DNA of 64,000 nucleotides from a virus. Position 1 is the first letter of the stretch; the number at the start of each line of letters is the position of its first letter. This document shows positions 2,598 to 33,159 of this stretch, one piece after another. The notes below the pieces were generated by a model that was not told where the DNA came from, did not search any database, and worked only from the letters and a program-made list of their open reading frames with translations. The position numbers and the translations under genes are program-made. The DNA lies in the IMG/VR virus record IMGVR_UViG_3300042341_001047. The stretch is one strand, 5' to 3'.

Positions 2598-3131
2598 TTA
2601 TTCTTTATCTTTATTAAAAATTTGATCAATCTTTTTATCTCTAATCCATGATTTGGATAATTCGGTTAAGTCTGAGGTCCAACCAGATATCTTATCAGTT
2701 ATGTAATAGTTATTCTCTATATGATTATTTTTAATTTCATGTTTTACATGATAATCACCAACATCATCTGACATCTTATAGTGATATTCCTTAGCAACGA
2801 TTATATAATCAATATTCAATTTATCTATAATCTCTCTATACTCTATAATAGTCGAAACACTAAGACCCCAAAAGTCAAATATTAAAAGGTCGACTCTAAA
2901 CAAATTAGAACGATTTTCTAATATCATTTTAAATTCGGAAAAATTATTAAATTCTATTTTATTATCTATAAAATATATAAGTGATGTTTTAGCAGAACTT
3001 GAACTTCTGGGTCTACAAATTAACAAAGGTGTTCTACCATCAGTTTCCAAAAAAGATATTATACGACTCAATGCGTATGAGACATCACTTGGATTACCAG
3101 TAATATAATTACTTCTTTTTATCGGTATCAT
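2598..3131 (-). CDS. degenerate RecA/DnaB-like P-loop protein with C-terminal tag
   Basis: ICRPRSSSSAKTS (broken Walker A), DLLIFD (Walker B-like), C-terminal IRDKKIDQIF. Confidence 0.4.
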   Translation of the reverse strand: MIPIKRSNYITGNPSDVSYALSRIISFLETDGRTPLLICRPRSSSSAKTSLIYFIDNKIEFNNFSEFKMILENRSNLFRVDLLIFDFWGLSVSTIIEYREIIDKLNIDYIIVAKEYHYKMSDDVGDYHVKHEIKNNHIENNYYITDKISGWTSDLTELSKSWIRDKKIDQIFNKDKE

Positions 3132-3525
3132 TTATATTCTTCATTCTAACATCAACTATATAGTTGAATTTATGTAAAAATCTCCTACCTATTAAGACAG
3201 GATATCTCATATTTTTTCTATTTGCTAATGATATAAAAAACTTATATGTTGATTCTCCAATTTTTATTTTTGTAAAAACTAAAAATCTTTCTTGTTTTCT
3301 ACCAAATGAACTTTTAACTGAAACCTTCTTAAATTTCTCATAAACAAATTCATTGGAGTCTATTCTAAATTTCAATTTACCATCGACAATCTCAATATCA
3401 TCGACATGTAAAGCTATACCATAAGCACCGGTATCTATTTTACCCTTTAACTTACCAATGTTCAACTCAGGGAAATAAACATTCTCATATCTCCCAACTT
3501 TCTTTTCCACATTTTCACCACCCAT
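3109..3525 (-). CDS. retropepsin-like putative protease (RimK-associated Zn_protease family)
   Basis: GKIDTGA, VKSSFG..QER and R..MRYPVLIGRRFL motifs. Confidence 0.75.
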   Translation of the reverse strand: MGGENVEKKVGRYENVYFPELNIGKLKGKIDTGAYGIALHVDDIEIVDGKLKFRIDSNEFVYEKFKKVSVKSSFGRKQERFLVFTKIKIGESTYKFFISLANRKNMRYPVLIGRRFLHKFNYIVDVRMKNINDTDKKK

Positions 3526-3659
3526 CTCCTCTATAAAATAATTTTATTTTATATATAATTTATTATACCCATCCATAGGGACATCTTAATTAACAAATAT
3601 AGTAATTTTTATTGAACAAATTGATAATAGTTTATATAAATAAAAAATAATATCATTTA

Positions 3660-4424
3660 ATGGCTCATAATTACGCTTTTACCTATGTAATAGGATACAG
3701 ACACAGAATAGACAGACTACAAAATTTAAGAAGAGTACTTGATTGGATCAATGGATTCTCAGGAGCAGAAGTAATAATAGTCGAGCAAGATAAACACTCA
3801 AAGATATCACATCTAAATCTAAAAGCTAAACATATTTTTATAAAATCAAATCTACCATATAATAGATCTTGGTCATTTAATGTGGCTTTGAAAAGCTCAA
3901 ATTCATCAGTAATAGTTTTTGGTGACTCTGATTTAATAATGGAACCTAATCAATTTATAGCTGGTTTACAAGCTCTTCAAACCTATGAAATGGTTAGTCC
4001 TTATCACACAGTAGTTGATTTAACACCAAGTGAAACTGGATTACCAATGGAAGAAGTGGTGAAAATTGAAAGACCTGGAAGAGGAGAAACAGATAACCAA
4101 AAGATTAATATTTCAGGCGGAATATCAATGTTTAGAAAAGAGTCTATCTCAAAAATAGCTGGTTGGAATGAAGACTTTATTGGATGGGGTGGAGAAGATG
4201 ATTATCAAACATTAAAAGTTCATAACTTTTTATCTTGGACAGAACTCAGAGCTAAGTGTTACCATCTTTATCATGATAAAGAACAACCAGAAATGAAATG
4301 GTATCAAAGAAATTTAGATCTACTTAAAAAGACATCTCAAATGGATAAGTCTCAGTTACAAAAGGTTATCTTTAACCAATTGCCAAAAATTGGAATGAAG
4401 AATAAATATGATAATTTCATCTAA
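3660..4424 (+). CDS. glycosyltransferase (GT2/GT7 galactosyltransferase-like)
   Basis: IIVEQD, FGDSD (DxD) and GWNEDFIGWGGEDD motifs. Confidence 0.8.
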   Translation: MAHNYAFTYVIGYRHRIDRLQNLRRVLDWINGFSGAEVIIVEQDKHSKISHLNLKAKHIFIKSNLPYNRSWSFNVALKSSNSSVIVFGDSDLIMEPNQFIAGLQALQTYEMVSPYHTVVDLTPSETGLPMEEVVKIERPGRGETDNQKINISGGISMFRKESISKIAGWNEDFIGWGGEDDYQTLKVHNFLSWTELRAKCYHLYHDKEQPEMKWYQRNLDLLKKTSQMDKSQLQKVIFNQLPKIGMKNKYDNFI

Positions 4425-5184
4425 AGATTTAGAAAAAGTATGTAACTATGTAGAGTCTACAAAACCTTCTTTACCACAAGCATCAATGAACTTCATTGAC
4501 TTTGAAGAAGAACCAAATGAAGAGTATCAAAGAGAAATTAAAAGAAAGAATAGAGAACTTGCTATTGATGCTATTATTGAAGATAAAGTAGAAGAGTTTA
4601 AAAACAGAGAATCATTTATTAATCCATTGGATAATGAAGGATATATACAAACTATATCTCCTAAACTTAAATCAATTAATGTTAAGGGTAAAACCTATTT
4701 AGATTTAACAGATATTTACACAGATATAATGATGACATTAGAATCATTAACATCTTCACCTATGAGTACTCCTCAAAATTTGAATATAAATATTCAAAAT
4801 GATCCTAGTTTAACAGACTTCGAAAATTTGATGGCTTTATCCAGAAGAGTTGTGTCTAAAATAATTTTATTAAGTAATTACATATCATCAACTGGTAGAA
4901 CAGGTCCTGCTAATACTATTATAATTGGTTTAGATGCTTATAAGTATCTTCTTCTTTCCAATGGAATGATGGCTTCAAGTAACGATGGTGTTGTGACTGG
5001 GAATATTAATGGAATGAATGTTATACCATCACCTTATATCAAATCAAATAAGATTATTATGATGAGAAATGTCCAGAAAACCGAGAATGGATTAAATGTA
5101 ATAAATTGTACAAATGATATGAGATACTTCTTAAAAGAGACTCCGAATTATTCTAAGATTATAAATTGGTTTGAAATTATATAG
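4408..5184 (+). CDS. truncated major capsid protein paralog with tag
   Basis: SKIILLSNYISSTGRTGPANTII aligns to MCP TKIAHASNYIATEGRVGPAQYLI; RELAIDAII near the N-terminus. Confidence 0.7.
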   Translation: MIISSKDLEKVCNYVESTKPSLPQASMNFIDFEEEPNEEYQREIKRKNRELAIDAIIEDKVEEFKNRESFINPLDNEGYIQTISPKLKSINVKGKTYLDLTDIYTDIMMTLESLTSSPMSTPQNLNINIQNDPSLTDFENLMALSRRVVSKIILLSNYISSTGRTGPANTIIIGLDAYKYLLLSNGMMASSNDGVVTGNINGMNVIPSPYIKSNKIIMMRNVQKTENGLNVINCTNDMRYFLKETPNYSKIINWFEII

Positions 5185-5716
5185 AGGCAACTCTAACCTT
5201 ATCATACTTTATTAGTAACTTATAAAGTTTTTCATATTCATCATTAGGATTCTCAACTTTTCGTTCATACCATTTATCCTTATTAAAATACTCAACTAAC
5301 ATACCAACTCTAAAATCTTCTTTTTTAGTTGGTTTCCAATATCTTTTTGATTCAACAAATGAGAATGATGTACCATTATGTAAATATGACATATTATCAG
5401 AATCAGTATTATACATTACAATACCCATTGGTATCTCAGAACCATCTTTGAATATCTTCTTAGCATTAGTCTCACCTGTATATTTAATAATAGCACAATC
5501 TTCGTGAAAGTGATTAAGTAGGAAAATAACATCTTTCCTTAAGGTATCATTATCAACACGACCATAAGCCATAACAGAGTCTTCATATTGACCTTTGTAA
5601 TAACCCTTAATAGGTAAAACTTGATATTCTTTAGCATAAAGAATTGAAATCATATCCTCTATTCTAGGTGAGGAAAGTAAAATAAAAGAAGCGTCTCTGT
5701 GTTCTAGTCCGATCAT
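5177..5716 (-). CDS. hypothetical protein
   Basis: 179-aa ORF with late motif upstream. Confidence 0.6.
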   Translation of the reverse strand: MIGLEHRDASFILLSSPRIEDMISILYAKEYQVLPIKGYYKGQYEDSVMAYGRVDNDTLRKDVIFLLNHFHEDCAIIKYTGETNAKKIFKDGSEIPMGIVMYNTDSDNMSYLHNGTSFSFVESKRYWKPTKKEDFRVGMLVEYFNKDKWYERKVENPNDEYEKLYKLLIKYDKVRVASI

Positions 5717-5734
5717 AAAGTATATATTAAATAT

Positions 5735-5890: not shown

Positions 5891-5914
5891 AGTTTATATA
5901 TCATATATTTAATT

Positions 5915-7156
5915 TTAAATAATTCTAAATTCTTCTAATAATTTTGTCTGGAAAATTGCCCAAACGCAATCCCTGTATTTCTTTTGCATGATTATACTAT
6001 CATGTACAGTAACAACTTTAATTTCAGGATAAAGTGTAATTATTTGTCTTATTATTTGATTGAAAATTAAATTACTCTCAGCCTTCTGTAAATCATATGC
6101 TAGTATTCGATAATCACCATGTTCTTTTTTATACAATTTTATAAAATTATGAATAGTCGGGAAAAGATTTGAGAAGACTTTATCAGCCTTACTATTTGAA
6201 CCATTTCTACCAAAAAGAACTTTATAGGTCATTTCTTTTACATTATTTCTATCACTACTACCAATTGAATTCATAACATACTGGTAATAGTTGCCACTTA
6301 TAGTTAACTCCTTAAATAATTGAAACTCTTCCTCTTTAACCCATTTACTTCCAATATCTTGAATCATCTTTGCTAAAAACAAAGGTTGACTATTTTTAAT
6401 ATCTATTTCAGAAGTTTCCTCACCATCTATCAATAAACAATTTTTTCTAATAAAGGATTTTAATATGGTAAAGTTTGTATGCATCCTACCATAATTATCA
6501 AAATGATAGAATATGTGTTTATCATTTATACACTCAACTGAATATCTATTACGATTATAAACATCAGTATCATCTTGTTTCAACGCATCAAGATAGAATA
6601 TAGACCTATCAAACTGCACTTGAACACTAAATAAATCATCTACAAGCTTAATCTTAATATCATTGTCAATTAATGACTTTTTATCATCTACATCATTCTC
6701 TTCTATTTGTGATATTTTGTTTTTATATTTTTTAAGAAGAACCTTATCACAATTATTATATCGTATAATTTTACCTCTTAAAATATATTCATTTATTGCG
6801 TAGATTCTAGAATTTTTACCTTTTTGATGTTTTGATAAAAGAACAATAACTCCCTTTTCAATGAGGAAGTCCATATAGTAATTATATAAATACCCATACT
6901 TCTCTTTGAGAATGGAAGCCATTAAACTAAATTTATTATTTTTTCTAAAATAATATTTAAGTATAAGGTTATGTAATATATCAACTATATACGCTGATTT
7001 TAATTTTTCACCTTTGTATGTAAAGTTTTTTTGTTTTGATATCTCTTCTAAAGAGACTGGTAGGAATTGTAAGCTATGTTTTTTATTCTCTAAATTCTTC
7101 TTAATTGACTGATATGATTCTATATCACTTAACTTAACTACACTTGAAACTGTCAT
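5915..7156 (-). CDS. family-A polymerase-fold protein without exonuclease
   Basis: YGRMH, motif A EIDIKNSQP, motif B RNNVKEMTYKVLFG, motif C VHDS. Confidence 0.6.
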   Translation of the reverse strand: MTVSSVVKLSDIESYQSIKKNLENKKHSLQFLPVSLEEISKQKNFTYKGEKLKSAYIVDILHNLILKYYFRKNNKFSLMASILKEKYGYLYNYYMDFLIEKGVIVLLSKHQKGKNSRIYAINEYILRGKIIRYNNCDKVLLKKYKNKISQIEENDVDDKKSLIDNDIKIKLVDDLFSVQVQFDRSIFYLDALKQDDTDVYNRNRYSVECINDKHIFYHFDNYGRMHTNFTILKSFIRKNCLLIDGEETSEIDIKNSQPLFLAKMIQDIGSKWVKEEEFQLFKELTISGNYYQYVMNSIGSSDRNNVKEMTYKVLFGRNGSNSKADKVFSNLFPTIHNFIKLYKKEHGDYRILAYDLQKAESNLIFNQIIRQIITLYPEIKVVTVHDSIIMQKKYRDCVWAIFQTKLLEEFRII

Positions 7157-7196
7157 AGATTTTATATAAAAAATCCTGGTTTATGTTTGTAATAAA

Positions 7197-7412
7197 CTAG
7201 ATATTATTAAAAATTTTATTGATAGAATTTTTACGATTAGAAGCCCTTTCTTTAATAAGTTCAGCTCTTAAAAGATTCTCAAGATCTTTTTCAATATCAG
7301 TATTATGATATGAACTTATATCCTTAATCATTTCAGTGGTCCAAGTAGCTTTAATAGCTCTTGTTTCTGCTTTAACTTCAATAGAAGTCATATTAAGATT
7401 AATTGATTTCAT
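7197..7412 (-). CDS. 71-aa gp23 (capsid) fragment with tag
   Basis: VKAETRAIKATWTTEMIKDISSYHNTDIEKDLENLLRAE resembles the conserved T4-type gp23 segment; C-terminal RKNSINKIF. Confidence 0.65.
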   Translation of the reverse strand: MKSINLNMTSIEVKAETRAIKATWTTEMIKDISSYHNTDIEKDLENLLRAELIKERASNRKNSINKIFNNI

Positions 7413-8755
7413 TATTTAGTTAAACTAGGTGGTTCCTTACTAGTTGATTCAGGAGTTATAGGTAATTTACCACCTTTACCTTTTTTCTTCTTTTCACCAG
7501 CTCCTTTTTCAAATTCTGAGTAAACATCAGGATAAACTTCACCTTCTCCATCTTTGTCATATTGAATATCAAAGAAGTCACCAAAATCAAGTAATCCAGA
7601 TCTTGTTAACTCAACCTCATGTAATTTATTAAGATATCTATCAATATATTTATCAATATCATCTACAAATCCATTAAATAAAATAACCGTATTATCAGTA
7701 AAAACACCAATTGGCTTTTTTCTTTTTTTGTTAAATGAACCCAATATAGCTTTGAATATATACTCAAGTTTACCACTTTCTCTTATGTAATCTTTTGTTA
7801 ATTTATTTGAAATAAGTTCAGTATTAATTTTAAATTTCTCTTTATCAAAGAATTCAGGAACTACAAATTCAAAATTTAATAAATCTTCTTTTACTTCAGA
7901 AACATAGATATTAAATAGTTTACATATTAAGTAAATGTAAACCTCATCTTTTTTATCACCTTTAAGTTTAATTTCATCTAAATTAAACGACTGACAAAAA
8001 TTTAAAAAGTTAATTAAAATAAGTGTATAGATTTCAACAAATTCAGTTGAATTACTATCATTCATTCTTTTATATAAAGGGTTAAGTATTTCAAATGAAA
8101 TATCCGTATCTTTTGATCTAACTATTAATTTCTCTAAATTAGATTGATAATCTTCTTCATCCATTAGAAATGAATTAGTAGAACTTGGATTAAGTATTTT
8201 ATAGAAAAAGAAAGCGAATGATTTCTCACCAAACACATACTCTAAATCATCCTCACTTGTATTAACAAAGTATTTAATAGCTTCTATAGCTCTTTCAGAT
8301 ATCTTCCCTTGGAAAACCACCGGTAGAACATCAACATCAAATAGTCTTGAATACTCATCTAACTCTTCTACTCCAAATTCATATTTACCACCTTTATTAA
8401 TAGTGGTTAAAACTAAATGATTTTTAGGAACTCTTGAATATTGTATATTTGCTGGTTGACTATCTGGAAAATATTCAAAACAGAACCACCATTTTTTATT
8501 AAGTAATGATTTAACTCTATTATCTAAACCATTAAGATAATTAATAGCAGGGTTGTAATAATTCTGCATAGCTAAATCAATTAAATTAATTGATTCACTA
8601 CCGATGGATTTAGGTCTTATGTTAAATTCCTTACCATCCCAGTTAACCCATATTTTTGAACCTTGTATATCTTCAAATACAATTATTTCATTTCCAAAAA
8701 TTGAATCTAATATTTCTTGGTCATTTTCACCATTTAATGTAACTAATCTACTCAT
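7412..8755 (-). CDS. RNA-ligase-fold protein, apparently inactive
   Basis: FEDIQGS in place of EKxDGS; CFEYF, PVVFQG and EKLIVR resemble ligase motifs; late motif upstream. Confidence 0.45.
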   Translation of the reverse strand: MSRLVTLNGENDQEILDSIFGNEIIVFEDIQGSKIWVNWDGKEFNIRPKSIGSESINLIDLAMQNYYNPAINYLNGLDNRVKSLLNKKWWFCFEYFPDSQPANIQYSRVPKNHLVLTTINKGGKYEFGVEELDEYSRLFDVDVLPVVFQGKISERAIEAIKYFVNTSEDDLEYVFGEKSFAFFFYKILNPSSTNSFLMDEEDYQSNLEKLIVRSKDTDISFEILNPLYKRMNDSNSTEFVEIYTLILINFLNFCQSFNLDEIKLKGDKKDEVYIYLICKLFNIYVSEVKEDLLNFEFVVPEFFDKEKFKINTELISNKLTKDYIRESGKLEYIFKAILGSFNKKRKKPIGVFTDNTVILFNGFVDDIDKYIDRYLNKLHEVELTRSGLLDFGDFFDIQYDKDGEGEVYPDVYSEFEKGAGEKKKKGKGGKLPITPESTSKEPPSLTK

Positions 8756-8815
8756 TGTGCTTGATTTTTGTTTTTTATCAATAGGGTATATATAAAAATA
8801 TATAACGTCTATAAT

Positions 8816-10651
8816 CTATCTATTATCTATGTAAATGATTACTTCACAGTAATATTCAATAAAGTGTTCATTCCACAAATCCCATTTGATATCAACACCA
8901 TCAAATGAGTAAACTTGTATGTTATTAAATTTAGGAAGTATGTTTTTTCTAAACCATCTAAATTTACATTTATCAAATGTTTCATTATCTCTTAAATGGA
9001 ATTCAGTAACAATTTTTGGAATTGTTTTTAAGAATTCAATATTACTTGGTTGGAATACATCATATTCACCACCCTCACAATCACATTTTAAGAAATCAAT
9101 TTTATCAATTCCATTTTCATCTAAAAATTCTCTAAATGTAAATGTTGGAACACTTTCTGTAACATTATCCCAAGATATTTCAATTTTCTTTTTATCTGTA
9201 ATTGCTCCCTGAATTATTTTCACATTATCTTTACCAACATTTTTATTTAATATATCAATTTGATGTGATAAAGGCTCAACAACATAACATTGTTTTGGAT
9301 TTTTTGGTAGAATTTTATATGTGAATGGACCTATAGACGCTCCTAAATCCACAACAATATCACCTTCTTCTACTTCAAAAAATCTTTCATATGTATTATC
9401 CTCAAATACTTCTTTGATTGCAGCATCTACATACTGATTATCTTTTTTACCCCAATCAAAATTTTGATAATCATTTTCTTCTACTTCACCGTTGATAATT
9501 TTATTGATTTGTTTAATCACCATATCAGAACCTATTTTTTTTGTACACTCAAACATACGTTCTGTATTTTTGTGTTTTGGACACCAATTCCAATCACCAG
9601 CATCTAATCTATCACTATTAAAACATCCATGACAAACTGACTTATTAATTACTCTATAAGTATTTAACAAAGTTTCAGCCCATTCTTCACTAAACCCAGA
9701 TATTAAAACAACAGGTAATCCGATTGACCAAGCTAACCAACTTAATCCAGATGCAAGTCCAATAAAAAACTCACAAGTTGACATATCACTTATAACATCT
9801 TTCATAGAACCACCTGGGAATTTTTGTATTCCTTTTGGTTGAAAGTTACCCATATATCCATCATTCTCTCTGGAATAAAGAACAACTTCATATCCCTTTT
9901 TAATTAAGTAATTCACAACTTCTTGCCATCCTGTTGGATTATTCCAATATTTTGCTTGTGCGGTTGAGTGCATAGCAAATCCAACTCTTTTCTTTTTAGT
10001 TGTAGAGATATTAGGAAGATTAGCAGAAACTTCTTTATAATCAAGTCCTAATATATCACTTGCTGTTTGTTGAAGTGGTATTTTCTTAAAATCTTTTGGA
10101 TTCAAATTTTGATTAAATAATCCATTGTTATAAAACCATCCGATTTTATAGTGAGCATAAATATTCTCAAATCCTTGCCCTGGGCTTACAAATTCTAAAT
10201 CAGGATATTGGTCAATAAATAAATCGTTCATAAATGTAGATATTGCTACCTGACATGAATGTTTCTTTCTGAACTCTTCAGCATATGGGAACCAAGCAAG
10301 TGTATCTCCTAAGGCTTTTGACTCAAGTGAAATATAAACCTTTTTACCAGTAAAATCTATCTTTTGGTCATAAACAACCTGGTCTTTTTTAGTTATTCTA
10401 ACTCTCCAATCAGCATAATACTCCCTATTAACTTTGGTCCACATACCACATCTTATATTAGATGAGTGTACTAGCCTATCTCCATCAATAAATTCAACTA
10501 AAAAGTTATCTTTAGAATTTCCTGATATCTCAACAGTAGGATTTCTTAAAAAAGAAACATTAAAGTTATACTTCTCTGGAATTTTATTTTCTGTAATAGA
10601 GGTACTATTATAAGCGTTAATATATTTCTGTGTTGTTAAAAATGTACTCAT
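8816..10651 (-). CDS. Aah/TibC-like heptosyltransferase fused to FkbM-family methyltransferase
   Basis: ALGDTLAW, FIGLASGLSWLAW, CHGC..WCP..FEC cysteines; C-terminal VVDLGASIG and KCDCEGGE. Confidence 0.75.
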   Translation of the reverse strand: MSTFLTTQKYINAYNSTSITENKIPEKYNFNVSFLRNPTVEISGNSKDNFLVEFIDGDRLVHSSNIRCGMWTKVNREYYADWRVRITKKDQVVYDQKIDFTGKKVYISLESKALGDTLAWFPYAEEFRKKHSCQVAISTFMNDLFIDQYPDLEFVSPGQGFENIYAHYKIGWFYNNGLFNQNLNPKDFKKIPLQQTASDILGLDYKEVSANLPNISTTKKKRVGFAMHSTAQAKYWNNPTGWQEVVNYLIKKGYEVVLYSRENDGYMGNFQPKGIQKFPGGSMKDVISDMSTCEFFIGLASGLSWLAWSIGLPVVLISGFSEEWAETLLNTYRVINKSVCHGCFNSDRLDAGDWNWCPKHKNTERMFECTKKIGSDMVIKQINKIINGEVEENDYQNFDWGKKDNQYVDAAIKEVFEDNTYERFFEVEEGDIVVDLGASIGPFTYKILPKNPKQCYVVEPLSHQIDILNKNVGKDNVKIIQGAITDKKKIEISWDNVTESVPTFTFREFLDENGIDKIDFLKCDCEGGEYDVFQPSNIEFLKTIPKIVTEFHLRDNETFDKCKFRWFRKNILPKFNNIQVYSFDGVDIKWDLWNEHFIEYYCEVIIYIDNR

Positions 10652-14203: not shown

Positions 14204-14232
14204 AAAAAACTCAGAGAAATCTGAGTTTTTTT
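14204..14232. terminator. bidirectional intrinsic terminator
   Basis: AAAAACTCAGA-GAAA-TCTGAGTTTTT. Confidence 0.75.
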
Positions 14233-14455
14233 ATTTAAGTATTTTATTTAGTTTATATTCTCTTTTATCTTCTAATTCAAGTGGTTCAGCTATTAACTCA
14301 CCATCCGATATTTTAATTTGCCATTTATTACCGGTCTTCTCATCTAATAGAACTAACTTACTAATAACTGTACAACCATCAACATCAACATTAATTGCGG
14401 TTGAGTTTGATGAACTATTTATATTAAATACACTAGGATTACAAGCTCTTGCCAT
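14231..14455 (-). CDS. small protein with C-terminal tag
   Basis: C-terminal KREYKLNKILK. Confidence 0.55.
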   Translation of the reverse strand: MARACNPSVFNINSSSNSTAINVDVDGCTVISKLVLLDEKTGNKWQIKISDGELIAEPLELEDKREYKLNKILK

Positions 14456-15188
14456 CTAAAATATTATCAATTTTTATATCTCTTTGTAAAGACGTATATT
14501 GTTTAAATGCCTCAGAAGTTTCATCTTCAATTACAAAAAATAATTTAGAGTCATTTACATTATAATCAATATCATATTCTATGACAATTCTCGGAGCGAA
14601 TGATCCAGGATAAGGTGTTTCATAAGCTTTCATTTCACCTACATTAAATTCAACTGCATTAAACAAACAAATTCTACCATCATTAAATTTCATATATGGA
14701 TCACTATAAACTTCAACACTACCTCCTAATTTACCATAACACTGAGGTTCACCTCCATTTTTCAAATCATGTGTTGTCATATAAGGTGAGAAAGCCGAAC
14801 TATCTTGTAATTCAGAGGCTATAAGTCCAGTAGTAATTAAGTTATTATAATTATCTCCAGTTAACAAACTTACTAATTGCTCAAGATATTTCCTACCATT
14901 CATTAATGAGCCATCAGGTCTTAAGTCTAAGTAATCAAATTTATGAGTAGTAAATAATCTCTTAGTGAGAGTTCTAATAATACTATTTGAAATTTCATTT
15001 TTAATAGCATTAACTAGATGAGGTTCCATATCTATATTAAGATATTCATTTTTCATTTCTGATGTTAAAACGGGAACTGAAAACTTTTTAGTCTCAAAAT
15101 TAGTAAGGTTTTTATTTTCGACCATCCAACGTTGAGAGGTAATAAAATCTCTTGTATTACTATTAAATAAATCTACTATGCTATTCAT
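14439..15188 (-). CDS. truncated major capsid protein paralog with tag
   Basis: LITTGLIASELQD, YSDPYMKFNDGRI and SFAPRI align to MCP LITNGGLAAALQD, YVDPYMRYNDNRI and TFAPRM; C-terminal QRDIKIDNIL. Confidence 0.75.
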   Translation of the reverse strand: MNSIVDLFNSNTRDFITSQRWMVENKNLTNFETKKFSVPVLTSEMKNEYLNIDMEPHLVNAIKNEISNSIIRTLTKRLFTTHKFDYLDLRPDGSLMNGRKYLEQLVSLLTGDNYNNLITTGLIASELQDSSAFSPYMTTHDLKNGGEPQCYGKLGGSVEVYSDPYMKFNDGRICLFNAVEFNVGEMKAYETPYPGSFAPRIVIEYDIDYNVNDSKLFFVIEDETSEAFKQYTSLQRDIKIDNILDGKSL

Positions 15189-20236: not shown

Positions 20237-21988
20237 TTAGTTCAATAACTGAGCAGCGTCAGTAACTGTAATAGTCATAAATTGTTTTTGTGGATACCAA
20301 CCAACTTCAGTTACTGCGTATCTTGAACGTAACAACATTCTTGGTGCGAATGTAGCTTCAGAGATTACAGAAATAGACTGAGCCATTAAGTAAGGTACGA
20401 AAATGATACCTGGTTGGTCAGGGTTATTCTTACGACCTAATACGATTCTGTTATCGTTATATCTCATATATGGATCTACATAGATAGAGATGTCTCCGAT
20501 TGAACCTACAGGGTATAATTGACCTTGTCCGTTTAATTTAGATTTAACTGGGTTAATTGTGTAACCAGCGATATCTTGAAGAGCTGCAGCTAAACCTCCG
20601 TTTGTGATAAGGTATTGAGCAGGTCCTACACGACCTTCAGTCGCGATATAGTTCGAAGCGTGAGCAATCTTAGTGATTAACTTTCTTTGAACAGCGTGAG
20701 TTGTTTCACCACCAACATAACCTGATGTTTGATTAGCATAAGCTGTATTCAAGTCAAAGATTGTTGTTCCTGTACCAACAGCACCACTAGATAATGGAGC
20801 ACTAGCCGCGTTTAATGTACCCATTTCGAAGATTTTAGCAACGATTTGTTTAGAGATTGTTTGAGACAACTCATTAACAAGGATAGATTCCATTTTTTGA
20901 ACGATATCCATACCTGTATTAGCTTTGATATCTTCAATTTCAGTTCTTCTAAGAGCTGAAGATACTTCGATAGTACCAACTGCTACAGTTTTAGAAGAGA
21001 TTTTTGGTCCGATAACACCAGCATATGAATCATCATCTGACTGACGAGACATTGGGTAAGAACCAGCAGCACCAGTACCAGCTGTCCAGTTTGCAGAGAA
21101 ACCTGGGATATGGTCTTCTAAAGCAGATACCAATTCGATAGTTTTTGTTCCAGCAACAACATTACCCGTAATAGTAGAGTAAGTACCTACTTGAGTAATT
21201 TGGTCAATCATAGATTGAGTTGGGTTAAAAGTGTTTCTTGCTTGGTCAAATGCCCAAAGTGTAGATGTTCCACTTGCTAAAGCTGTAGCAGTATGAGCTG
21301 TGTTAGCTTGTCTGTAAGCTCTGAAGATTGGGAAACCATCGATACGAGAGAAACCTAAGAACTCAGCAGTACCTCTTTTATCAGCATTTTCTTGACTAGT
21401 TACAGTAACTGTACCAGCGATAGCTGAAGAAGCATTAAGAGATATCCAAACTCTACCGTTTGCTAAACCACCTGTAGTTTCATTGATTGAATTAGTAGCT
21501 AAGAAAGCTCTAATTGATCTTTGAATAGATGCGTTTTCTGGACAATTTAATTTGAAAACTTGTGGTCTTTCATCAGCACCATTAACTGAACGAACGTCAT
21601 CATATTGAAAATCAATATAAAGTAAGTCGATTTTTGGACCTGGAGTTGGTTTAACAGCTACTAAATCTAAACCGATTGTTTGAGCTGCAATTTTCATTGC
21701 TACTGGTAACAAGTTTTGACCTACGTCTCCTGAACCAAGTGATCCACCGTTTCCGTTTCCAGACCAGTTACTACCTAGTAAAGAACCAGCTAATGAAGAT
21801 GGTTGAGCAGCTGTAACAGCTCCCATACCTGCAACGTTAGAAGCGTTAACATACGCATTCTCGTTGATTGAGTGATATTCAGCCATTTCTGACATCCATT
21901 CAACTCTTTCAGCAGATACACCCATGTTTTCCAATACTGGAGTCCACTTCTTAACTGCTTTTTGTTTGTCTATTCTAATGTGTGACAT
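20237..21988 (-). CDS. major capsid protein (gp23-like)
   Basis: KKWTPVLE, DLVAVKP, YVDPY, FVPY and FAPRMLLRSRYAV; strongly biased codons; next to prohead protease. Confidence 0.9.
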   Translation of the reverse strand: MSHIRIDKQKAVKKWTPVLENMGVSAERVEWMSEMAEYHSINENAYVNASNVAGMGAVTAAQPSSLAGSLLGSNWSGNGNGGSLGSGDVGQNLLPVAMKIAAQTIGLDLVAVKPTPGPKIDLLYIDFQYDDVRSVNGADERPQVFKLNCPENASIQRSIRAFLATNSINETTGGLANGRVWISLNASSAIAGTVTVTSQENADKRGTAEFLGFSRIDGFPIFRAYRQANTAHTATALASGTSTLWAFDQARNTFNPTQSMIDQITQVGTYSTITGNVVAGTKTIELVSALEDHIPGFSANWTAGTGAAGSYPMSRQSDDDSYAGVIGPKISSKTVAVGTIEVSSALRRTEIEDIKANTGMDIVQKMESILVNELSQTISKQIVAKIFEMGTLNAASAPLSSGAVGTGTTIFDLNTAYANQTSGYVGGETTHAVQRKLITKIAHASNYIATEGRVGPAQYLITNGGLAAALQDIAGYTINPVKSKLNGQGQLYPVGSIGDISIYVDPYMRYNDNRIVLGRKNNPDQPGIIFVPYLMAQSISVISEATFAPRMLLRSRYAVTEVGWYPQKQFMTITVTDAAQLLN

Positions 21989-22068: not shown

Positions 22069-24186
22069 TTAGATGTTTTTGAATCTTTCCATAATAGCAG
22101 TAACATCATTATCAGAAAGTTTATCTTCTTGTATAAGACTTTCGTGTGATACTAACTTTTTAGTTACAGATTCATTTGTTTTAAGCTTTCTAGTTGCCCA
22201 GAAGTGCTCAACTTGAGATTCGTTCATTAAAACTTCAGCTGGGTAAAGTCTAGCTTGTGATAAGATAGATTTTTTAGCAGATTCATTCATTTGACTCCAG
22301 ATAGCCTTAGTGTTTTCAGGCATTAATCTGATTACTCTTTCTTCAAGTGTTTCATTCTTTGTTGATAATGCTTCAGCAATTAGACCTAATACATCTTTGG
22401 ATGTGAAATAACTTCTCTCGTTTATGTGAAGTTTAACAGATTCCTGTTCTTCGTCTGATAGTGCATAAAAGCTATCTACTTGTGACTTGTTTAAGAATTT
22501 TAAGAAATTCAAGTCTGTAGATTCAGAAACTTTACGTTTTTTAGCTTCTTCTATTAATTTATTAATTGATTCAGATAATTCAGAATCTTCATGTCCACCA
22601 ACTTCATAGTTATGTGAATGAACTTCTTCTTCATTTTCTTCATTTTCATTTTCTTCTTCATTTTCCATATTGTAAGCCTCTTCTTCGTGAGCTGAAGGAA
22701 CACCATTGTATTCTTCTTCATCTTCTTCAGTAGCGTTAGGTCCACAATTTTCATCTTCTTCAGCATCTTCGAAACCAGCAGCTTGTAATGAAGGGAAAGC
22801 TTCTTCTTCATTTGATTCAAATAATTTACCACCTTTAGAATTTAATTTTTCAACGATTAATCCTTGGTAAGAAATTGATTTGTCTAAGTTTTCAGCGATA
22901 TATTCTGAATAAGCGATATTATCATCTAAATGTTCAGCGATGTACTCAGAGTAAGCGATGTTACCTTCAACGTGTTCAGCTAAATATTCTGAATAAGCGA
23001 TTGAATTATCAACGTGTTCAGCGATGTACTCACCGTAAGCGATACTTTTATCTAAGTTTTCAGCGATGTACTCAGAGTAAGCGATGTTTTTGTCTAAGTT
23101 TTCAGCTAAATATTCTGAATACTCAATGTTTTTATCCAAATTCTCAGCTAAATACTCAGAATAAGAAATGTTTTTATCCAAATTCTCAGCGATATACTCA
23201 GAATAAGAAATATTTTTATCAAGATTTTCAGCTAAATATTCTGAATACTCGATATTTTTATCTAAGTTTTCAGCCAAATACTCAGAGTAGTTAACAGCCT
23301 TTTCAAGATTTTCGGCTAAATAGTCATTATGTTTAATAAGTTTATTTGTAGTCTCTTTTAAAGACTTATTCTCATTAACCATAATTTGAACTTTCTCAGC
23401 CAAATAATCCAAGTACTTAACAACTTGAGAATTTGTGTTATTTAACTCATCGTAATACTCTAAAAGTTGTTCAAGTTTTTTAGGACTTAAGTTACCTTTA
23501 GAAATTGCACCTTTAACTTCTTTCTTAGTAGAAGCTAATTCTTTAACTAAATATTGAGAATAGTCAGTTAACTGTTGTTTAGTAACAAATTCATTTTTGT
23601 TCATATCAAATAGTTGATTTATTTTGGACTCATCGGACATTTCATATATCCTAAAGTTGGAGTTTTGATTATAACCCAAAGACTCGTTAAGAACCTTCAC
23701 GCTCATCTTAGCCGATGCAAATCCTGGATCAGCTACTATATCATAAGTAAATAATTTCTTTAAGGAAACAGTACCATCTGATTCAGTAATACCAGCCGCT
23801 CTTGAAGAAACAAAAACTGGACAACCATCATCAACTAATGCTTTAGCTTCTTTACCCCAATAGGTACTAAGAAGTCTAATTTCACCACTAACAAGGTTAG
23901 ATTCTTTTACATAATTTGCTTTTGTAATTATGTGAGAAGCTCTAGAAAGAGATGTATCAAAAACATCTGGGTGATCAAACTCACCATAAACAGCACCTAG
24001 ACTGCTCATTCTATCATTCATCTCATTTAAAGCAGGAAGAAATTTGTCAGCAGTATAAATTCTTTCATTACGATTTTTAACACCGAATTCCGTGAATGTA
24101 CCACCAAGTATATAATCTTTCTTACCATTGACACTTTCTCTTATAAGAGCATTTGTCGAATTTTCTACAATTAAAACTGGTTTCAT
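22069..24186 (-). CDS. prohead protease (gp21-like) fused to scaffold
   Basis: NRNERIY, GEFDHP, VSSRAAG and TYDIVADPGF, followed by coiled-coil repeats and an acidic region. Confidence 0.88.
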   Translation of the reverse strand: MKPVLIVENSTNALIRESVNGKKDYILGGTFTEFGVKNRNERIYTADKFLPALNEMNDRMSSLGAVYGEFDHPDVFDTSLSRASHIITKANYVKESNLVSGEIRLLSTYWGKEAKALVDDGCPVFVSSRAAGITESDGTVSLKKLFTYDIVADPGFASAKMSVKVLNESLGYNQNSNFRIYEMSDESKINQLFDMNKNEFVTKQQLTDYSQYLVKELASTKKEVKGAISKGNLSPKKLEQLLEYYDELNNTNSQVVKYLDYLAEKVQIMVNENKSLKETTNKLIKHNDYLAENLEKAVNYSEYLAENLDKNIEYSEYLAENLDKNISYSEYIAENLDKNISYSEYLAENLDKNIEYSEYLAENLDKNIAYSEYIAENLDKSIAYGEYIAEHVDNSIAYSEYLAEHVEGNIAYSEYIAEHLDDNIAYSEYIAENLDKSISYQGLIVEKLNSKGGKLFESNEEEAFPSLQAAGFEDAEEDENCGPNATEEDEEEYNGVPSAHEEEAYNMENEEENENEENEEEVHSHNYEVGGHEDSELSESINKLIEEAKKRKVSESTDLNFLKFLNKSQVDSFYALSDEEQESVKLHINERSYFTSKDVLGLIAEALSTKNETLEERVIRLMPENTKAIWSQMNESAKKSILSQARLYPAEVLMNESQVEHFWATRKLKTNESVTKKLVSHESLIQEDKLSDNDVTAIMERFKNI
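22870..23331 (-). repeat. 42-nt (14-aa) coding tandem repeat, about 10 core units
   Basis: YSEY(L/I)AE(N/H)(L/V)DKNI(E/S/A) units. Confidence 0.9.
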
Positions 24187-24366: not shown

Positions 24367-24419
24367 GGGGCAGTGATTAACTTAATAAATAATAGAAATT
24401 TTTGCAAATTCGAGGATTT

Positions 24420-24806
24420 ATGATACTAACAAGAGTAATAGATATTAAAATAAATGAATCAAACTTTCAATACTATGAAGATTTGGGATATGATGTAACT
24501 ATTGGGGAAAATATACAAATACCCATAGAGTTAATGTCAAAAGGATCACATTATAAAATAACTTGTAAATGTGATGGATGTGGTATAGAAAAGGATGTAA
24601 TCTTTAAAAACTATATTAAATATGATAATAAGTGGGGTGAATATTATTGTAGAAAATGTTCCGAAGTAAAAAGAAAGAAAACACTAAGAGAAAACTTCGG
24701 AGTTGACTACCCAATACAAAATAAAAAGGTTCTTACTAAGATGAAAAAAACTCTAGTTGAGAAGTATGGTGTAGATAATATCTCAAAGAGAGATAAACAA
24801 AATTAA
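24420..24806 (+). CDS. zinc-binding homing-endonuclease-associated protein without nuclease domain
   Basis: CKCDGCG, CRKC, FGVDYP/YGVDN repeats. Confidence 0.55.
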   Translation: MILTRVIDIKINESNFQYYEDLGYDVTIGENIQIPIELMSKGSHYKITCKCDGCGIEKDVIFKNYIKYDNKWGEYYCRKCSEVKRKKTLRENFGVDYPIQNKKVLTKMKKTLVEKYGVDNISKRDKQN

Positions 24807-26708: not shown

Positions 26709-27158
26709 ATGGATGGTTGGAGTGTAACAAAGTCTTTTAATATTAAATTAGATAATAATAATTTAGAACAATACGAGAAACTATTATCTAATTTTAGTAA
26801 TTGGAAAGAATATAAAAGAGATATTAAACTAAATTCAATTTTAGAAGATAAAAAGATTGAATTTACTTTAGATATATCCGCACATTCTCTTGGTGTTATG
26901 TATGTAAATGTTGTAACAGATGATAATTATGACTATGATGTTCTTAAAAAATCATCATCTGCTATAAAGTTTATGAAATTTATACTCAAAGGTAATAATG
27001 TTTTAGAATTAGAAATAACAATTAAAACAATGACTACTGAATGGGGTAAGATTATCAGAAACTTAATTGAATCAGGAGTTGAACTAGAACTCAGACAAAA
27101 CATAGTAGATAATCAAGTCAAATCTTTCTACTTTACATATCCAAAAATGACAGCATGA
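26709..27158 (+). CDS. inactive prohead protease paralog with tag
   Basis: EITIKTMTTEWGKIIRNLIESGVEL vs protease GEIRLLSTYWGKEAKALVDDGCPV; no GExxHP or SSR; KRDIKLNSIL near the N-terminus. Confidence 0.6.
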   Translation: MDGWSVTKSFNIKLDNNNLEQYEKLLSNFSNWKEYKRDIKLNSILEDKKIEFTLDISAHSLGVMYVNVVTDDNYDYDVLKKSSSAIKFMKFILKGNNVLELEITIKTMTTEWGKIIRNLIESGVELELRQNIVDNQVKSFYFTYPKMTA

Positions 27159-27592
27159 TGAAATTTATCAACATATTAACAGAAGCCAATCAGGACTATT
27201 TAAATGAAATCATAGATAAAATGTCTATTTCTGAGATTGAATATATCGAATCTTTATATTCCAAATTTAGTGCAATTGAATACATAGATGATAATGATAA
27301 TGAATGTATGTTTGCTATATTAGATGATAACCTATTAGTAGACATATCAAATCTATATAAAAAATATGGAATAAAATTCAAAGTGGTGGATTTATCAACT
27401 GATATATTTTTCGACAACCACTTTGATGTTCTTTTTGAAAATAATATTGGACAAGATATGTCTAATATCATACTTAAATTAATATTAAGTTTCAAAGAAG
27501 ATTTTACTACAAAGGATATTGTTCTTGATAAAATATTAAGTAAAGGAATATCCAGTCTTACAAAATTTGATAAAGAGATTCTAGATAACTAG
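27155..27592 (+). CDS. hypothetical protein with DUF6576-like C-terminus
   Basis: DIVLDKILSKGISSLTKFDKEIL. Confidence 0.55.
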   Translation: MMKFINILTEANQDYLNEIIDKMSISEIEYIESLYSKFSAIEYIDDNDNECMFAILDDNLLVDISNLYKKYGIKFKVVDLSTDIFFDNHFDVLFENNIGQDMSNIILKLILSFKEDFTTKDIVLDKILSKGISSLTKFDKEILDN

Positions 27593-29304
27593 AATTCGAA
27601 TTCCCCACCACCTTCAGCAGGAGGAGTTTCTCCACCCTCAGCCGGAGCTTCTGGAGCGGCTTGAGCACCTTGAGCAGGAGCTTCACCTTCAGCAGGAGGC
27701 GTCTCACCACCTTCAGCAGGAGCTTCACCACCTTCAGCAGGAGCACCACCGGCAGCGGCGGCAGCGGCGGCGACAGACGCAGCATCTTTAGCCCAGTATC
27801 TTTGATTTTCAGCAATTTCCTCTTGAGTAAGTTTAAATACATTGTCTATTAAGTAATCAACGTGGAAGTAAGGTTTCTCACCATTCATAATTCCAACTAA
27901 TGTTCCAAATATCTCAGCTTTCTTAGCTAAGTTTCCTAATTTCTTCCACTCTTCAAATACTTGATTTGAGTTAAAAGTAATATCCATTTGATTCATGATA
28001 ACTTCATCATCTTTCAACTCAGGGAACTCAATTAACATTTGTAATTTAAGAGGTTTAACAATTAATTCTTTAAAGTTAGCTCTTAATCTATTAACAAAGT
28101 TATAAAACTTAATCTCATCTCTTGTCATCTCAGAAGCATCTGAGAAAAGGTTACCACCACCATTTTCTTTATCGAATCTTTGGAAAGGAATTTTAGAAGC
28201 TCTTTTCAAAGCATTATAGAACCAAGTTAACATATCAGACTCATTCAAGTTATGTCCTTCTGGTGAAACTAATTCCATAGCTGGTGTACCAGCATCTCCT
28301 TCAGGAAACCAAATTTGTTTATTATAAGGTAAGTGTTTAGCCCCATTGATACTTAAAGTACCTAATGTATCATCCCATTCTACTTCTTCAGAATAGTCAT
28401 TAATTAATTGACCAATTTGTTCTTCAGCTCTTTGTCTTGATAAACCTTTAATTGGAATAGTAAATTTTTGATAAACGGTAGCATTAATAATGTTAAACAT
28501 AACTCTTGTTTGTTCAAGAATCTTTAACTGATTATATGGTTTAATTAAACCTTCAACATAAGAAGTTTCTGAATAATCATTTTGAGTAGAGTAAGAAATA
28601 TAAACTATTTGAGAATCTAAGAATATTCTTCTTAATTGAGGATCCTCTGGAAACTGAATCCATAAGTGACCTATTGTTGGTTCATAAGCTGGAACTAAAG
28701 TTTCTGGTCTTAATCTATTAAATCCAATGATATTTTTCTTTTTATCATCATAAATAATTTCAAGTGCTAAATAACCATCAACTAAAAAGTCTTTCATCAT
28801 ATTCCAAGCCGTGATACTATCACCGAATCCAAACTTATTATAAATTTTTTCAAAATACTCTTGATATTTATCTTTTACTTCTTGTGGATACTCATTAGAT
28901 AATGTTTTTGGAGAACAAAAGTCTCTATCATCATTGTAAACGATACTCTCATCAGCTATCGAACTAACAAAGTCTCTAATCTCATCTTTAATAGAATACT
29001 CTCTTAGGATTCTTCTTTTATCACCATATGCTTTATCTAAGTAAGGAATAGATTTTCTATTTAATACCGAAGCAACGGCTCTTTGAGAAAAGAAATCATA
29101 CATTGAGTTACCTCTAGCAGCGTATGGATCTTCGTTGATACCAATACCTACTTGATTTCTAACAATCATATCATCATAATTCATACCATATGATGATAAA
29201 CTTCTTAAAATTCTATTAAAAAGTCCTTTGTTTTCAACTGCACTATTTGTGTAAGCGAAATTCGAATTTGATGTATCTTGATTAGATTGATTATAAGAAG
29301 CCAT
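27589..29304 (-). CDS. portal protein (gp20-like)
   Basis: LVDG, IKPYNQLKILE, LKRASKIP..RF, EMTRDEIKF..FVNRLR; Ala/Pro/Glu/Gly tail. Confidence 0.9.
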   Translation of the reverse strand: MASYNQSNQDTSNSNFAYTNSAVENKGLFNRILRSLSSYGMNYDDMIVRNQVGIGINEDPYAARGNSMYDFFSQRAVASVLNRKSIPYLDKAYGDKRRILREYSIKDEIRDFVSSIADESIVYNDDRDFCSPKTLSNEYPQEVKDKYQEYFEKIYNKFGFGDSITAWNMMKDFLVDGYLALEIIYDDKKKNIIGFNRLRPETLVPAYEPTIGHLWIQFPEDPQLRRIFLDSQIVYISYSTQNDYSETSYVEGLIKPYNQLKILEQTRVMFNIINATVYQKFTIPIKGLSRQRAEEQIGQLINDYSEEVEWDDTLGTLSINGAKHLPYNKQIWFPEGDAGTPAMELVSPEGHNLNESDMLTWFYNALKRASKIPFQRFDKENGGGNLFSDASEMTRDEIKFYNFVNRLRANFKELIVKPLKLQMLIEFPELKDDEVIMNQMDITFNSNQVFEEWKKLGNLAKKAEIFGTLVGIMNGEKPYFHVDYLIDNVFKLTQEEIAENQRYWAKDAASVAAAAAAAGGAPAEGGEAPAEGGETPPAEGEAPAQGAQAAPEAPAEGGETPPAEGGGEFEF

Positions 29305-29375: not shown

Positions 29376-29852
29376 TTATACATAGAAAGTTCTAAAAACA
29401 ACCTTCAAATCTGTTGAAGTTAGCTTACTTTCAACGAAAAATGATTGAAAATCGTCTTGATTTTTAGAAATTGCATCTACTAATTTTTGAAATTTCATAG
29501 CTGATCTTTTCTCTAAAAATTTATTACCTTCACTCCAAGTAATATCACCTGTTTTAGGATCGATAACAGAGTCTATTCTATGTGTATTATTACCAGAGTT
29601 GAATATGGATCTAAGTAAAAAAGACTCACCTGATCTAAATAAACTCATCTCTTGGAACTTAGCCTCAGGAAAAGGTCTAACACCACCAACTAAAATACCA
29701 AAAATCATCTCGTCAACTTCTCTTCTAGACATATTAACAGCGTGTGTTCTTAATTCTTTAGCTCTATCGATTTGCCCAAAATCTTCTAATTTATCAGCAG
29801 CACTGATATATGTTGAGTAATCCAATTCTTCAAATTTTCTGATGTGTTTCAT
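29376..29852 (-). CDS. hypothetical protein with capsid-targeting-like N-terminus
   Basis: MKHIRKFEE; late motif. Confidence 0.6.
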   Translation of the reverse strand: MKHIRKFEELDYSTYISAADKLEDFGQIDRAKELRTHAVNMSRREVDEMIFGILVGGVRPFPEAKFQEMSLFRSGESFLLRSIFNSGNNTHRIDSVIDPKTGDITWSEGNKFLEKRSAMKFQKLVDAISKNQDDFQSFFVESKLTSTDLKVVFRTFYV

Positions 29853-29886
29853 AGTATTTTGTATATTTTATATGATTATATATTAA

Positions 29887-30582: not shown

Positions 30583-30624
30583 GAGTTTAATTTTCTTTTA
30601 TATATAAAGAAAACTATTATAGAT

Positions 30625-31483: not shown

Positions 31484-31785
31484 ATCATTTCTGTGTTATA
31501 TATTATATCTTCAAATTTTATAAGATTTTGAAATTCAACCTCAGATATTTTAACAGAATTTGAAGTGGATAATAAATTATAAATACTATCAGTTAGAAAA
31601 ACTTCAATTCCTTCACCAACAATACTATCATATTCATTGGGTATATCACCAGATTCTCTATTAGAATAAATATTTGAAACAAATTTTATTCTTTCATCTT
31701 CATTAATATGAATTGAGCATCCATTACTAAACACACCATCATTTTGATTTGACTCTTCCCAAAGTTGTAAAATAACCTTATTCAT
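31480..31785 (-). CDS. hypothetical protein
   Basis: ORF coupled to the next gene. Confidence 0.55.
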   Translation of the reverse strand: MNKVILQLWEESNQNDGVFSNGCSIHINEDERIKFVSNIYSNRESGDIPNEYDSIVGEGIEVFLTDSIYNLLSTSNSVKISEVEFQNLIKFEDIIYNTEMI

Positions 31786-31856
31786 TTTTTTAATAATTTA
31801 TAGTCATTTTATAAAACAATTGTGAGAAAGTTTCATAAAATAAAAAAAACTTTAAA

Positions 31857-32966
31857 ATGAGCGTAAAATTAGAATACATTTGGTTAGATGGTTCGGAACC
31901 ACAACAATTAAGAAGTAAAACTAAAATTGTCGAAAAATCAGACACACTTTTGGCAAAAGATTACTCTATGTGGTCTTTCGATGGAAGTTCAACACTACAA
32001 GCAGAATCAGGAAGAGGTAAAAATACAGATTGTCTTTTAAAACCAGTGTTTATAACAAAAGATCCATTCAGAGGATATCCACACAGATTAGTATTTTGTG
32101 AAGTATTAAATCCTGACGGAACTCCACATATAACTAATCACAGATATAAGTTAGAAGAAAAAATGAATCAGTTAGGATTACTTGAAACGATTGATAAAAA
32201 CGAACAACCTTGGTTTGGTTGGGAACAAGAATACACACTAACACATAAGACAGGAAATCCTTTTGTTGAAGGTGAAGGTTTGCCATTAGGATTTACAAAA
32301 GATATTTTACACCCAGGAATAGGAACCTCATTAAATCCAAGACCACAAGGTGATTATTATTGTGGTATTGGAGCTGATACGGTTATTGGTCGTAATATAG
32401 TTGAAGAACATATGGATATGTGTATAGAAGTAGGTTTAGATATATCAGGAATAAACGCTGAAGTATTACTTGGTCAATGGGAATATCAAATTGGTCCAGT
32501 TACATCATTAAATGGATCGGACCAATTATGGGTTTCTAGATATTTACTACAAAGAGTTGCTGAAAAATATGATACTAATGTTTCACTTCATCCAAAACCA
32601 TTAAAAGGGGACTGGAACGGAACTGGATGTCATGTGAACTTTTCTACTAAGGAAATGAGAGAAGAAGGTGGATTGGATATAATCAAAGAAACAATGCCTA
32701 AATTAGAGAGATTTCAAAAAGAACACATTGAAATCTATGGTTTATTCAATGAAGAAAGATTAACAGGACAACACGAAACATCAAGTATTAATGATTTCAG
32801 CTATGGATTTTCTACAAGAGATACTTCTATCAGAATTCCAGCACAAGCTATAATTGAAAAGAAAGGTTACTTTGAAGATAGAAGACCAGCATCAAATTGT
32901 GACCCTTATTTAGTTTCAGAAAGAATGTTAGAAACGGTATATAGTGGTGTTGAAACAGAAGCTTAA
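31857..32966 (+). CDS. glnII: glutamine synthetase type II
   Basis: EYIWLDG, LRSKT, FDGSST, NAEV..GQWEYQ, HPKP..GDWNGTGCH, EDRRPASNCDPY. Confidence 0.93.
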   Translation: MSVKLEYIWLDGSEPQQLRSKTKIVEKSDTLLAKDYSMWSFDGSSTLQAESGRGKNTDCLLKPVFITKDPFRGYPHRLVFCEVLNPDGTPHITNHRYKLEEKMNQLGLLETIDKNEQPWFGWEQEYTLTHKTGNPFVEGEGLPLGFTKDILHPGIGTSLNPRPQGDYYCGIGADTVIGRNIVEEHMDMCIEVGLDISGINAEVLLGQWEYQIGPVTSLNGSDQLWVSRYLLQRVAEKYDTNVSLHPKPLKGDWNGTGCHVNFSTKEMREEGGLDIIKETMPKLERFQKEHIEIYGLFNEERLTGQHETSSINDFSYGFSTRDTSIRIPAQAIIEKKGYFEDRRPASNCDPYLVSERMLETVYSGVETEA

Positions 32967-32979
32967 TATTAATAAAAAT

Positions 32980-33007
32980 AAAAACCTCTCAATTGAGAGG
33001 TTTTTTT
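32980..33007. terminator. bidirectional intrinsic terminator
   Basis: AAAACCTCTC-AATT-GAGAGGTTTTT. Confidence 0.7.
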
Positions 33008-33159
33008 ATTTTAAATAAGTTTTGAATTTTTTCTTTTCGTCTTTTCTGTCTTGAAGGAAATATAGTTATTGGTATATTAGCGGCACCAAATGCTGGTGTC
33101 ATAACTATATCAAATGTTTTTAGATTGATATTAGAGTGAGTGGAGTCCCATGCCATCAT
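32989..33159 (-). CDS. 56-aa prohead-protease fragment with tag (not in ORF track)
   Basis: MMAWDSTHSNINLKTFDIVMTPAFGAANIPITIFPSRQKRRKEKIQNLFKIKKPLN; overlaps the sigma gene end by 29 nt. Confidence 0.55.
   Translation of the reverse strand: MMAWDSTHSNINLKTFDIVMTPAFGAANIPITIFPSRQKRRKEKIQNLFKIKKPLN

Follow-up and report, generated by a model that had tools for sequence, protein, structure and literature searches.

The stretch of DNA analysed here, hereafter the window, comprises 64,000 nucleotides of the virus record IMGVR_UViG_3300042341_001047 of IMG/VR, and contains seven scattered open reading frames (ORFs) whose products carry the same short peptide tag. The window is part of a contig of 86.8 kb with a GC content of 28%, which corresponds to about 15% of a complete genome. 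The contig DNA is approximately 78% identical to two uncultured phage genomes, LR745206 and LR756502 (634,780 and 642,428 bp), and the clade is one of giant phages of roughly 600 kb. The region is T4-like, since it encodes a major capsid protein (MCP) of the gp23 family, a head protease, a portal, a large terminase, a gp44-like clamp loader and a gp55-like late sigma factor. A first reading of the letters of the window, the sequence-only reading, had described the tag as R-x-x-(K/A/S)-(I/L)-(D/N/Q)-x-(I/L)-(L/F/I) and had taken it for the mark of a decoy system made of broken copies of essential phage proteins. The seven carriers, each called here by its first coordinate, are listed with the other features in Table 1.

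All seven ORFs are open frames and each contains one match to the pattern. Among the 93 ORFs of the contig (27,071 amino acids) the pattern was found seven times, exactly in the seven named ORFs, compared with 0.156 on average, and never more than 3, in 2000 shuffles; the comparison with shuffled proteins, which the sequence-only reading had proposed as a check on itself, thus came out clearly on the side of the tag. The same pattern gave 58 matches in the whole LR745206 genome, where 1.46 were expected. When a profile of the tag was used, with the threshold set at about one false match per proteome, we detected 152 matches in 151 of the 952 LR745206 proteins (16%). The consensus is hydrophobic-R-[D/E/N]-x-K-[I/L]-[N/D/K/E]-x-[I/L]-[L/F/I, or G-I], and the Arg is present in 151 of the 152 tags. 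No profile match was obtained in the non-coding shadow frames of the contig (63,309 amino acids), and the shadow frames of LR745206 gave 23 extra matches, most of them resembling missed small ORFs that likewise end in the tag. Shuffles and shadow frames together exclude a Lys/Ile/Asn-rich composition as the source of the tag.

The tag has a strong preference for the C-terminus. Five of the seven tags in the window lie 1-7 residues from the C-terminal end, and two are found near the N-terminus (starting at residue 49 in 4408 and at residue 37 in 26709). The LR745206 tags were located no more than 8 residues from the C-terminus in 127 of 152 cases, and at a distance of 0-2 residues in 91. Carriers are small: 29% of all LR745206 proteins of 75-150 amino acids bear the tag, and a C-terminal tag was observed on only one of the 212 proteins of at least 250 amino acids.

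The DNA encoding the tag shows no similarity between sites beyond the 27 nucleotides themselves, and the synonymous codons for Arg, Lys, Ile and Leu within it follow the usage of the genome, which indicates that the constraint acts on the protein. For these reasons a DNA repeat or regulatory element was rejected. Real genes split by recoded stops or introns were rejected as well: stop usage is ordinary, the ORFs have a constant length in relatives, and intact MCP and protease genes are present. The orthologs of the window ORFs in LR745206 and LR756502 retained the tag at only 33-52% overall identity. In the family of 14439 (90 homologs of 225-264 amino acids, with identity down to 30%) the tag residues R236, K239 and I240 are invariant, and in the family of 2598 (59 cluster representatives, identity down to 25%) the sole invariant columns are F78 and the tag Arg, R164. 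Confident AlphaFold models of these two proteins show the tag as the final two to three turns of an alpha-helix at the C-terminus, with the Arg in the middle of its hydrophobic face. As the sequence-only reading had proposed, the tag behaves as a portable module that can sit at either end of a protein: it was observed on HK97-fold, RecA-like and protease-like bodies, and also inside two helicases, UvsW-like and DinG-like, of LR745206. The tag is thus real, selected as protein, portable across folds and C-terminally biased.

Table 1. Tagged ORFs and other features named in the text (positions in the window; aa, amino acids)
Feature	Coordinates	Strand	Description	Tag residues (DNA)
2598	2598-3131	-	177-aa RecA/KaiC-like protein	164-172 (2616-2642, -), within C-terminal helix 155-176
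4408	4408-5184	+	258 aa; MCP-like segment, aa 139-193, resembling aa 428-472 of the MCP of the same phage	49-57 (4552-4578, +)
7197	7197-7412	-	71-aa mini-copy of one gp23 segment (strand, then long helix)	60-68 (7209-7235, -)
14231	14231-14455	-	74 aa; overlaps end of 14439 gene	65-73 (14237-14263, -)
14439	14439-15188	-	249-aa capsid-protein paralog	236-244 (14457-14483, -), end of C-terminal helix 226-244
26709	26709-27158	+	149 aa; aa 59-128 resembling head protease core, aa 61-126, of the same phage	37-45 (26817-26843, +)
32989	32989-33159	-	56 aa; probable mini-copy of head protease aa 137-197	41-49 (33013-33039, -)
Intact MCP	20237-21988	-	583 aa, gp23 family; Pfam Gp23 E 3.9e-28; phrog_138	
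Head maturation protease with fused repeat-rich scaffold-like region	22069-24186	-	705 aa; phrog_207, E 1.8e-30	
Portal	27589-29304			
Large terminase	41390-43519			
gp44-like clamp loader	36106-37167			
gp55-like late sigma	33131-33496	-	121 aa	
Homing-endonuclease-like ORF	24402-24806	+	phrog_12131; between protease gene and large nuclease gene	
M28-like zinc peptidase	1465-2550	-	phrog_4191; paralog of the next, 45% identical over 249 aa	
M28-like zinc peptidase	18376-19737	-	phrog_4191	
Leader-bearing gene	29376-29852	-		
Leader-bearing gene	38128-38739	-		
Leader-bearing gene	38807-39484	-		
Leader-bearing gene	49603-50169	+		

Three of the carriers had been aligned by eye to the MCP, as truncated copies. 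Relationship to the MCP was found for all three, by different means and to a different extent. The body of 7197 matched Pfam Gp23 at E 4e-10 (40.1 bits against a cut-off of 24.4) and phrog_138; its residues 1-55 are 33-44% identical to the MCPs of many T4-like phages and 26% identical to that of its own phage. The 14439 protein matched its own MCP in blastp at 1.7e-7, and its AlphaFold model (pLDDT 84, pTM 0.79) resulted in near full-length Foldseek matches to T4 gp24 (1yue, 1e-7), T4 gp23 (7vrt, TMq 0.57) and other HK97-fold shells. Its length is constant across the 90 homologs, and according to the model it is a complete, compact HK97 fold and not a broken copy, so that the description as a truncated protein did not hold in this case. 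The weakest of the three is 4408, for which blastp against the own MCP gave a local match only (4e-5 to 8e-5) and Pfam Gp23 stayed below its cut-off (E 0.031). The three copies measure 71, 249 and 258 amino acids, and the shell protein of the same phage measures 583, including an N-terminal propeptide and insertions. We also considered 4408 and 14439 as members of one family, which was rejected because hhalign aligned nothing but the tag.

For two further bodies, 26709 and 32989, derivation from the head protease is probable, and their lack of catalytic residues was borne out; neither body gave a match to a head protease in the Pfam and phrog profile libraries. For 26709, hhalign against the protease of the same phage reported a probability of 81% and an E-value of 1.2e-5, from thin alignments. 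The residue aligned to the catalytic His is not His, and the alignment stops before the stretch that bears the Ser, where no matching motif is present. The protein has 303 homologs, the best 120 of which are all about 149 amino acids long and 84-100% identical. The 32989 ORF is collinear with a single protease segment (pairwise E 4e-4, 61 columns), and the copies of relatives agree with it more closely; it covers this segment only, and the catalytic His and Ser are not kept. The 32989 ORF shares 29 nucleotides, in the +1 frame, with the end of the gp55-like late sigma gene, an arrangement also present in LR745206, and in one relative a 179-residue form reads through the sigma and 32989-type ORFs. 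A missing C-terminus of a split gp55 was nevertheless rejected for 32989, in view of its collinearity with the protease and of a sigma protein that is complete at 121 amino acids in 373 homologs.

The claim of a dead RecA-like ATPase was confirmed for 2598. Its model (pLDDT 91) matched KaiC (CI), RadA and RecA in Foldseek at E 8e-5 to 1e-3 with a TMq of about 0.5, and the family alignment contains no Walker A motif (GxxxxGK[ST]) and no conserved Gly-Lys-Ser/Thr. The body of 14231 gave no family match in the profile-library searches, and no support was obtained for it as a protease relative. The intact MCP and head protease carry no tag at their ends, in agreement with the sequence-only reading. 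Each contains an internal tag-like stretch without the Arg: residues 379-387 of the MCP, aligned with the tag of 7197, and residues 185-193 of the protease, after the catalytic domain, aligned with the tag of 32989. Judged from these alignments, either the tags of 7197 and 32989 were perhaps refined out of a helix already present in the parent, or a tag was perhaps attached to the fragment where the two sequences resembled each other.

The protease gene has two further features of its own. At about 22850-23340 (minus strand) its scaffold-like region contains about a dozen tandem 13-residue repeats, Y-S-E-Y-[L/I]-A-E-N-L-D-K-N-I, and each of them contains an [L/I]-A-E triplet like the cleavage motif of the T4 head protease; the repeat itself resembles the T4 capsid-targeting sequence. 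The M28-like peptidase genes, one of which closely follows the tagged RecA-like gene and the other of which lies downstream of the capsid gene, were considered as head proteases and rejected, being M28-like peptidases without the tag. A region of LR756511 was likewise rejected as an informative relative: it belongs to an unrelated phage of 41% GC, the match is to a true MCP, and no tags are present. In this 595 kb genome we observed two adjacent proteins ending in L-L-K-E-F-G-W and a third, similar one nearby (5146-5718, 6969-8810 and 8804-8977), which may be another lineage-specific tail.

The scan of the LR745206 proteome showed the tag to be widespread, and it did not show it to be special to paralogs of core genes. 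Most of the carriers are mutually unrelated proteins of 75-150 amino acids without a blastp-level link to core genes; only one of the 151 tagged proteins matched another tagged one by blastp, and six matched an untagged one. Many resemble, by eye, small beta-barrel mini-proteins, and a few are mini-ORFs with a stretch of DNA polymerase B motif A or motif B, or with an N-terminal piece of the MCP. The idea that the tag marks broken copies of core genes is therefore not sustained, with about 16% of the proteins tagged and most of them lacking a detectable core-gene link. The tag is a proteome-wide address of which the core-protein copies are a minority of carriers. Since the window is a head-gene region, the sample of carriers from which the decoy idea was drawn was biased.

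The timing of expression was approached through upstream motifs. The motif (T)TAATATATA is found upstream of the capsid, protease, portal and terminase genes and of large virion-type genes, and 172 LR745206 genes have it in the 60 nucleotides upstream, where 12 would be expected. Because it precedes the capsid, portal and terminase genes, we infer that it is a putative late promoter. It often ends just 4-5 nucleotides ahead of the ATG, so that late mRNAs would be leaderless. Within 70 nucleotides upstream, the late-promoter-like motif was present for 9% of the tagged LR745206 genes; the share was 28% among the other genes (Fisher 8e-8) and 25% among genes of matched size. The host-type TAnnTTTG showed a slight enrichment upstream of tagged genes (15% against 9%, p 0.05). 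In the window, genes upstream of 2598, 4408 and 7197 have the late-promoter-like motif. Most tagged proteins are probably not the products of late genes. A different short element, the N-terminal leader M-K-[Y/H]-[L/I]-[K/R]-x-F-[N/E]-E, is common to 45 otherwise different LR745206 proteins and is borne by four genes of the contig (Table 1). The late-promoter-like motif precedes 47% of the leader proteins of LR745206, and none of the 45 has the C-terminal tag. The leader is similar in form to the T4 capsid-targeting sequence and is a better candidate for capsid targeting than the tag.

The best reading of these results, which we hold with moderate confidence and by analogy with known end peptides, is that the tag would be a docking helix, portable between proteins and recognised by a single common partner. 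Having all carriers plugged into a single partner is also the most economical reading. The tag would then serve as a portable address, or docking peptide, on about one sixth of the proteins of the clade; one shared reader that recognises the helix would bring very different bodies to the same place, and the seven carriers of the window would belong to this class, their bodies being, by chance, inactive or shortened versions of the MCP, the head protease and a RecA-like ATPase. The invariant Arg in the middle of the hydrophobic face suggests that the reader has a groove containing an acidic pocket. Among possible partners, a host hub (a protease adaptor, for instance, or the machinery of transcription or replication) has a chance well short of even, and we give the same weight to a partner of another kind altogether. 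The sliding clamp of the phage appears less likely than either, and there is only a slight chance for the prohead, or for association of tag with tag in place of another partner. Several points weigh against a docking helix of this kind. Docking is argued from analogy alone, and a short amphipathic helix could also cap a fold, act as a degron or mediate self-association. Because the tags of 7197 and 32989 align with tag-like stretches of their parent proteins, part of the resemblance may be inherited helix sequence. The large replication enzymes of LR745206 mostly lack the tag, and its DNA polymerase has a different, T4-like tail.

An identity of the tag with the sliding-clamp-binding peptide of this lineage, that is, a counterpart of the C-terminal tails of T4 gp43, gp33 and gp55 with the carriers riding the phage clamp, seems to us rather unlikely. 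Such tails, which bind gp45, and the PIP-box and beta-clamp motifs are likewise short end peptides of the form hydrophobic-x-x-hydrophobic-hydrophobic that bring many clients to one hub. The phage is of T4 type, with its gp23 capsid protein, gp44-like clamp loader and gp55-like sigma, and the extreme C-terminal place and the hydrophobic-D/N-x-hydrophobic-hydrophobic core of the tag are like the tail of gp43 in the T4 record. The tag also occurs inside the UvsW-like and DinG-like helicases, on a 77-residue ORF by the polymerase gene and on the ORF that overlaps the late sigma gene. A clamp candidate is present in LR745206 at 139078-139866 (phrog_223, E 1.8e-4); on our own contig, which is about 15% of a genome, no clamp was detected by PF02916 or phrog_223. 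However, the tag differs from the T4 tails in its invariant Arg, in its Lys and in its at least 150 mostly tiny carriers, a number of clamp clients that would be unprecedented, and a C-terminal tag on a single one of the 212 large LR745206 proteins does not fit either. The polymerase and late sigma factor of the relative are untagged: DNA polymerase 43B of LR745206 ends in a tail without Arg and Lys, and the gp55-like sigma is a conserved protein without a tail in its 373 homologs, followed by an ORF that is probably a protease fragment and is not the sigma C-terminus. The family B DNA polymerase of LR745206 is split into two parts about 100 kb apart (130568-131992, minus strand, and 232803-234344, plus strand), and the tagged 77-residue ORF lies close to the part encoding its C-terminal half. 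A route into the prohead, with the tag as a capsid-targeting signal that loads cargo through the capsid protein or scaffold, we regard as very improbable. It would have a precedent in the capsid-targeting sequence of T4 internal proteins and in the C-terminal part of the HK97 protease, likewise short terminal peptides that send unrelated proteins to a common assembly; relatives of head proteins make up five of the seven window carriers, 2598, 4408 and 7197 follow genes with the late motif, and the tag-like stretch of the protease stands just after the catalytic domain. The T4 signal, however, is N-terminal and cleaved, whereas the tag is mostly C-terminal, and the depletion of the late motif upstream of its carriers, together with the separate leader of late genes that never co-occurs with it, argues against the tag as a capsid-cargo signal.

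The tagged inactive copies could also be baits for host sensors of capsid, protease or recombinase, or for the assembly of rival phages, with the tag leading the captured target to a shared protease or sink; we consider this doubtful as an account of the tag. Six of the seven bodies in the window are inactive or partial copies of core proteins, 7197 resembles the capsid proteins of T4-like phages in general more than the MCP of its own phage, the LR745206 mini-ORFs with polymerase motifs or an MCP piece are of the same kind, and the core-protein copies are kept as ORFs in relatives. In the adaptors SspB and RssB, a substrate-binding body is tethered to a protease (ClpX) by a short peptide at its C-terminus. 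An architecture of this type would make bait plus tag work, and these ClpX-binding tails have no sequence match to the tag. Most carriers, however, lack a blastp-level link to core genes, so that the tag is not specific to baits; the HK97 fold of 14439 is complete and the conservation of 26709 equals that of core assembly proteins, and as stable genes both could be ordinary parts of head assembly. For the subset with core-protein bodies a decoy role is possible. Accounts that need no shared reader (an intrinsic capping helix, a self-association zipper, a recombination joint, or a by-product of Lys/Ile/Asn-rich composition) have in our view little chance of being correct. In both models the terminal helix does extend beyond the tag, the conserved basic and acidic positions of the tag match and could pair between copies, and the parent MCP and protease have tag-like helices at the aligned sites. 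Composition is ruled out by the controls described above, and folding needs alone hardly explain a near-invariant Arg, and a Lys, on unrelated folds at either protein end.

Large DNA viruses offer a parallel. The ankyrin/PRANC (F-box-like) and BTB-kelch families of poxviruses dock on eukaryotic SCF/cullin ubiquitin ligases through a folded domain. Here too a large DNA virus has many variable target-binding bodies, one conserved C-terminal module and a single hub; unlike in the poxvirus families, the module is a helix of 9-12 residues, and the virus is a phage. Searches of the literature for a tail or decoy system of this kind returned nothing. An extended form of the docking reading, to which we give a low probability, is a toolkit of bodies with a common handle, in which about 150 or more small binders, among them inactive mimics of the capsid protein, the head protease, a recombinase and polymerase motifs, would each capture a different protein of the host or of a rival phage, and the helix would hand the catch to one hub, such as a protease or a sequestering machine. 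If true, it would be the phage counterpart of the viral adaptor families that hijack degradation machinery. More generally, if one peptide addresses a sixth of the proteome of a giant phage, finding its partner would give a working context to more than 100 proteins of unknown function, and that partner would also explain why small inactive copies of core proteins are retained.

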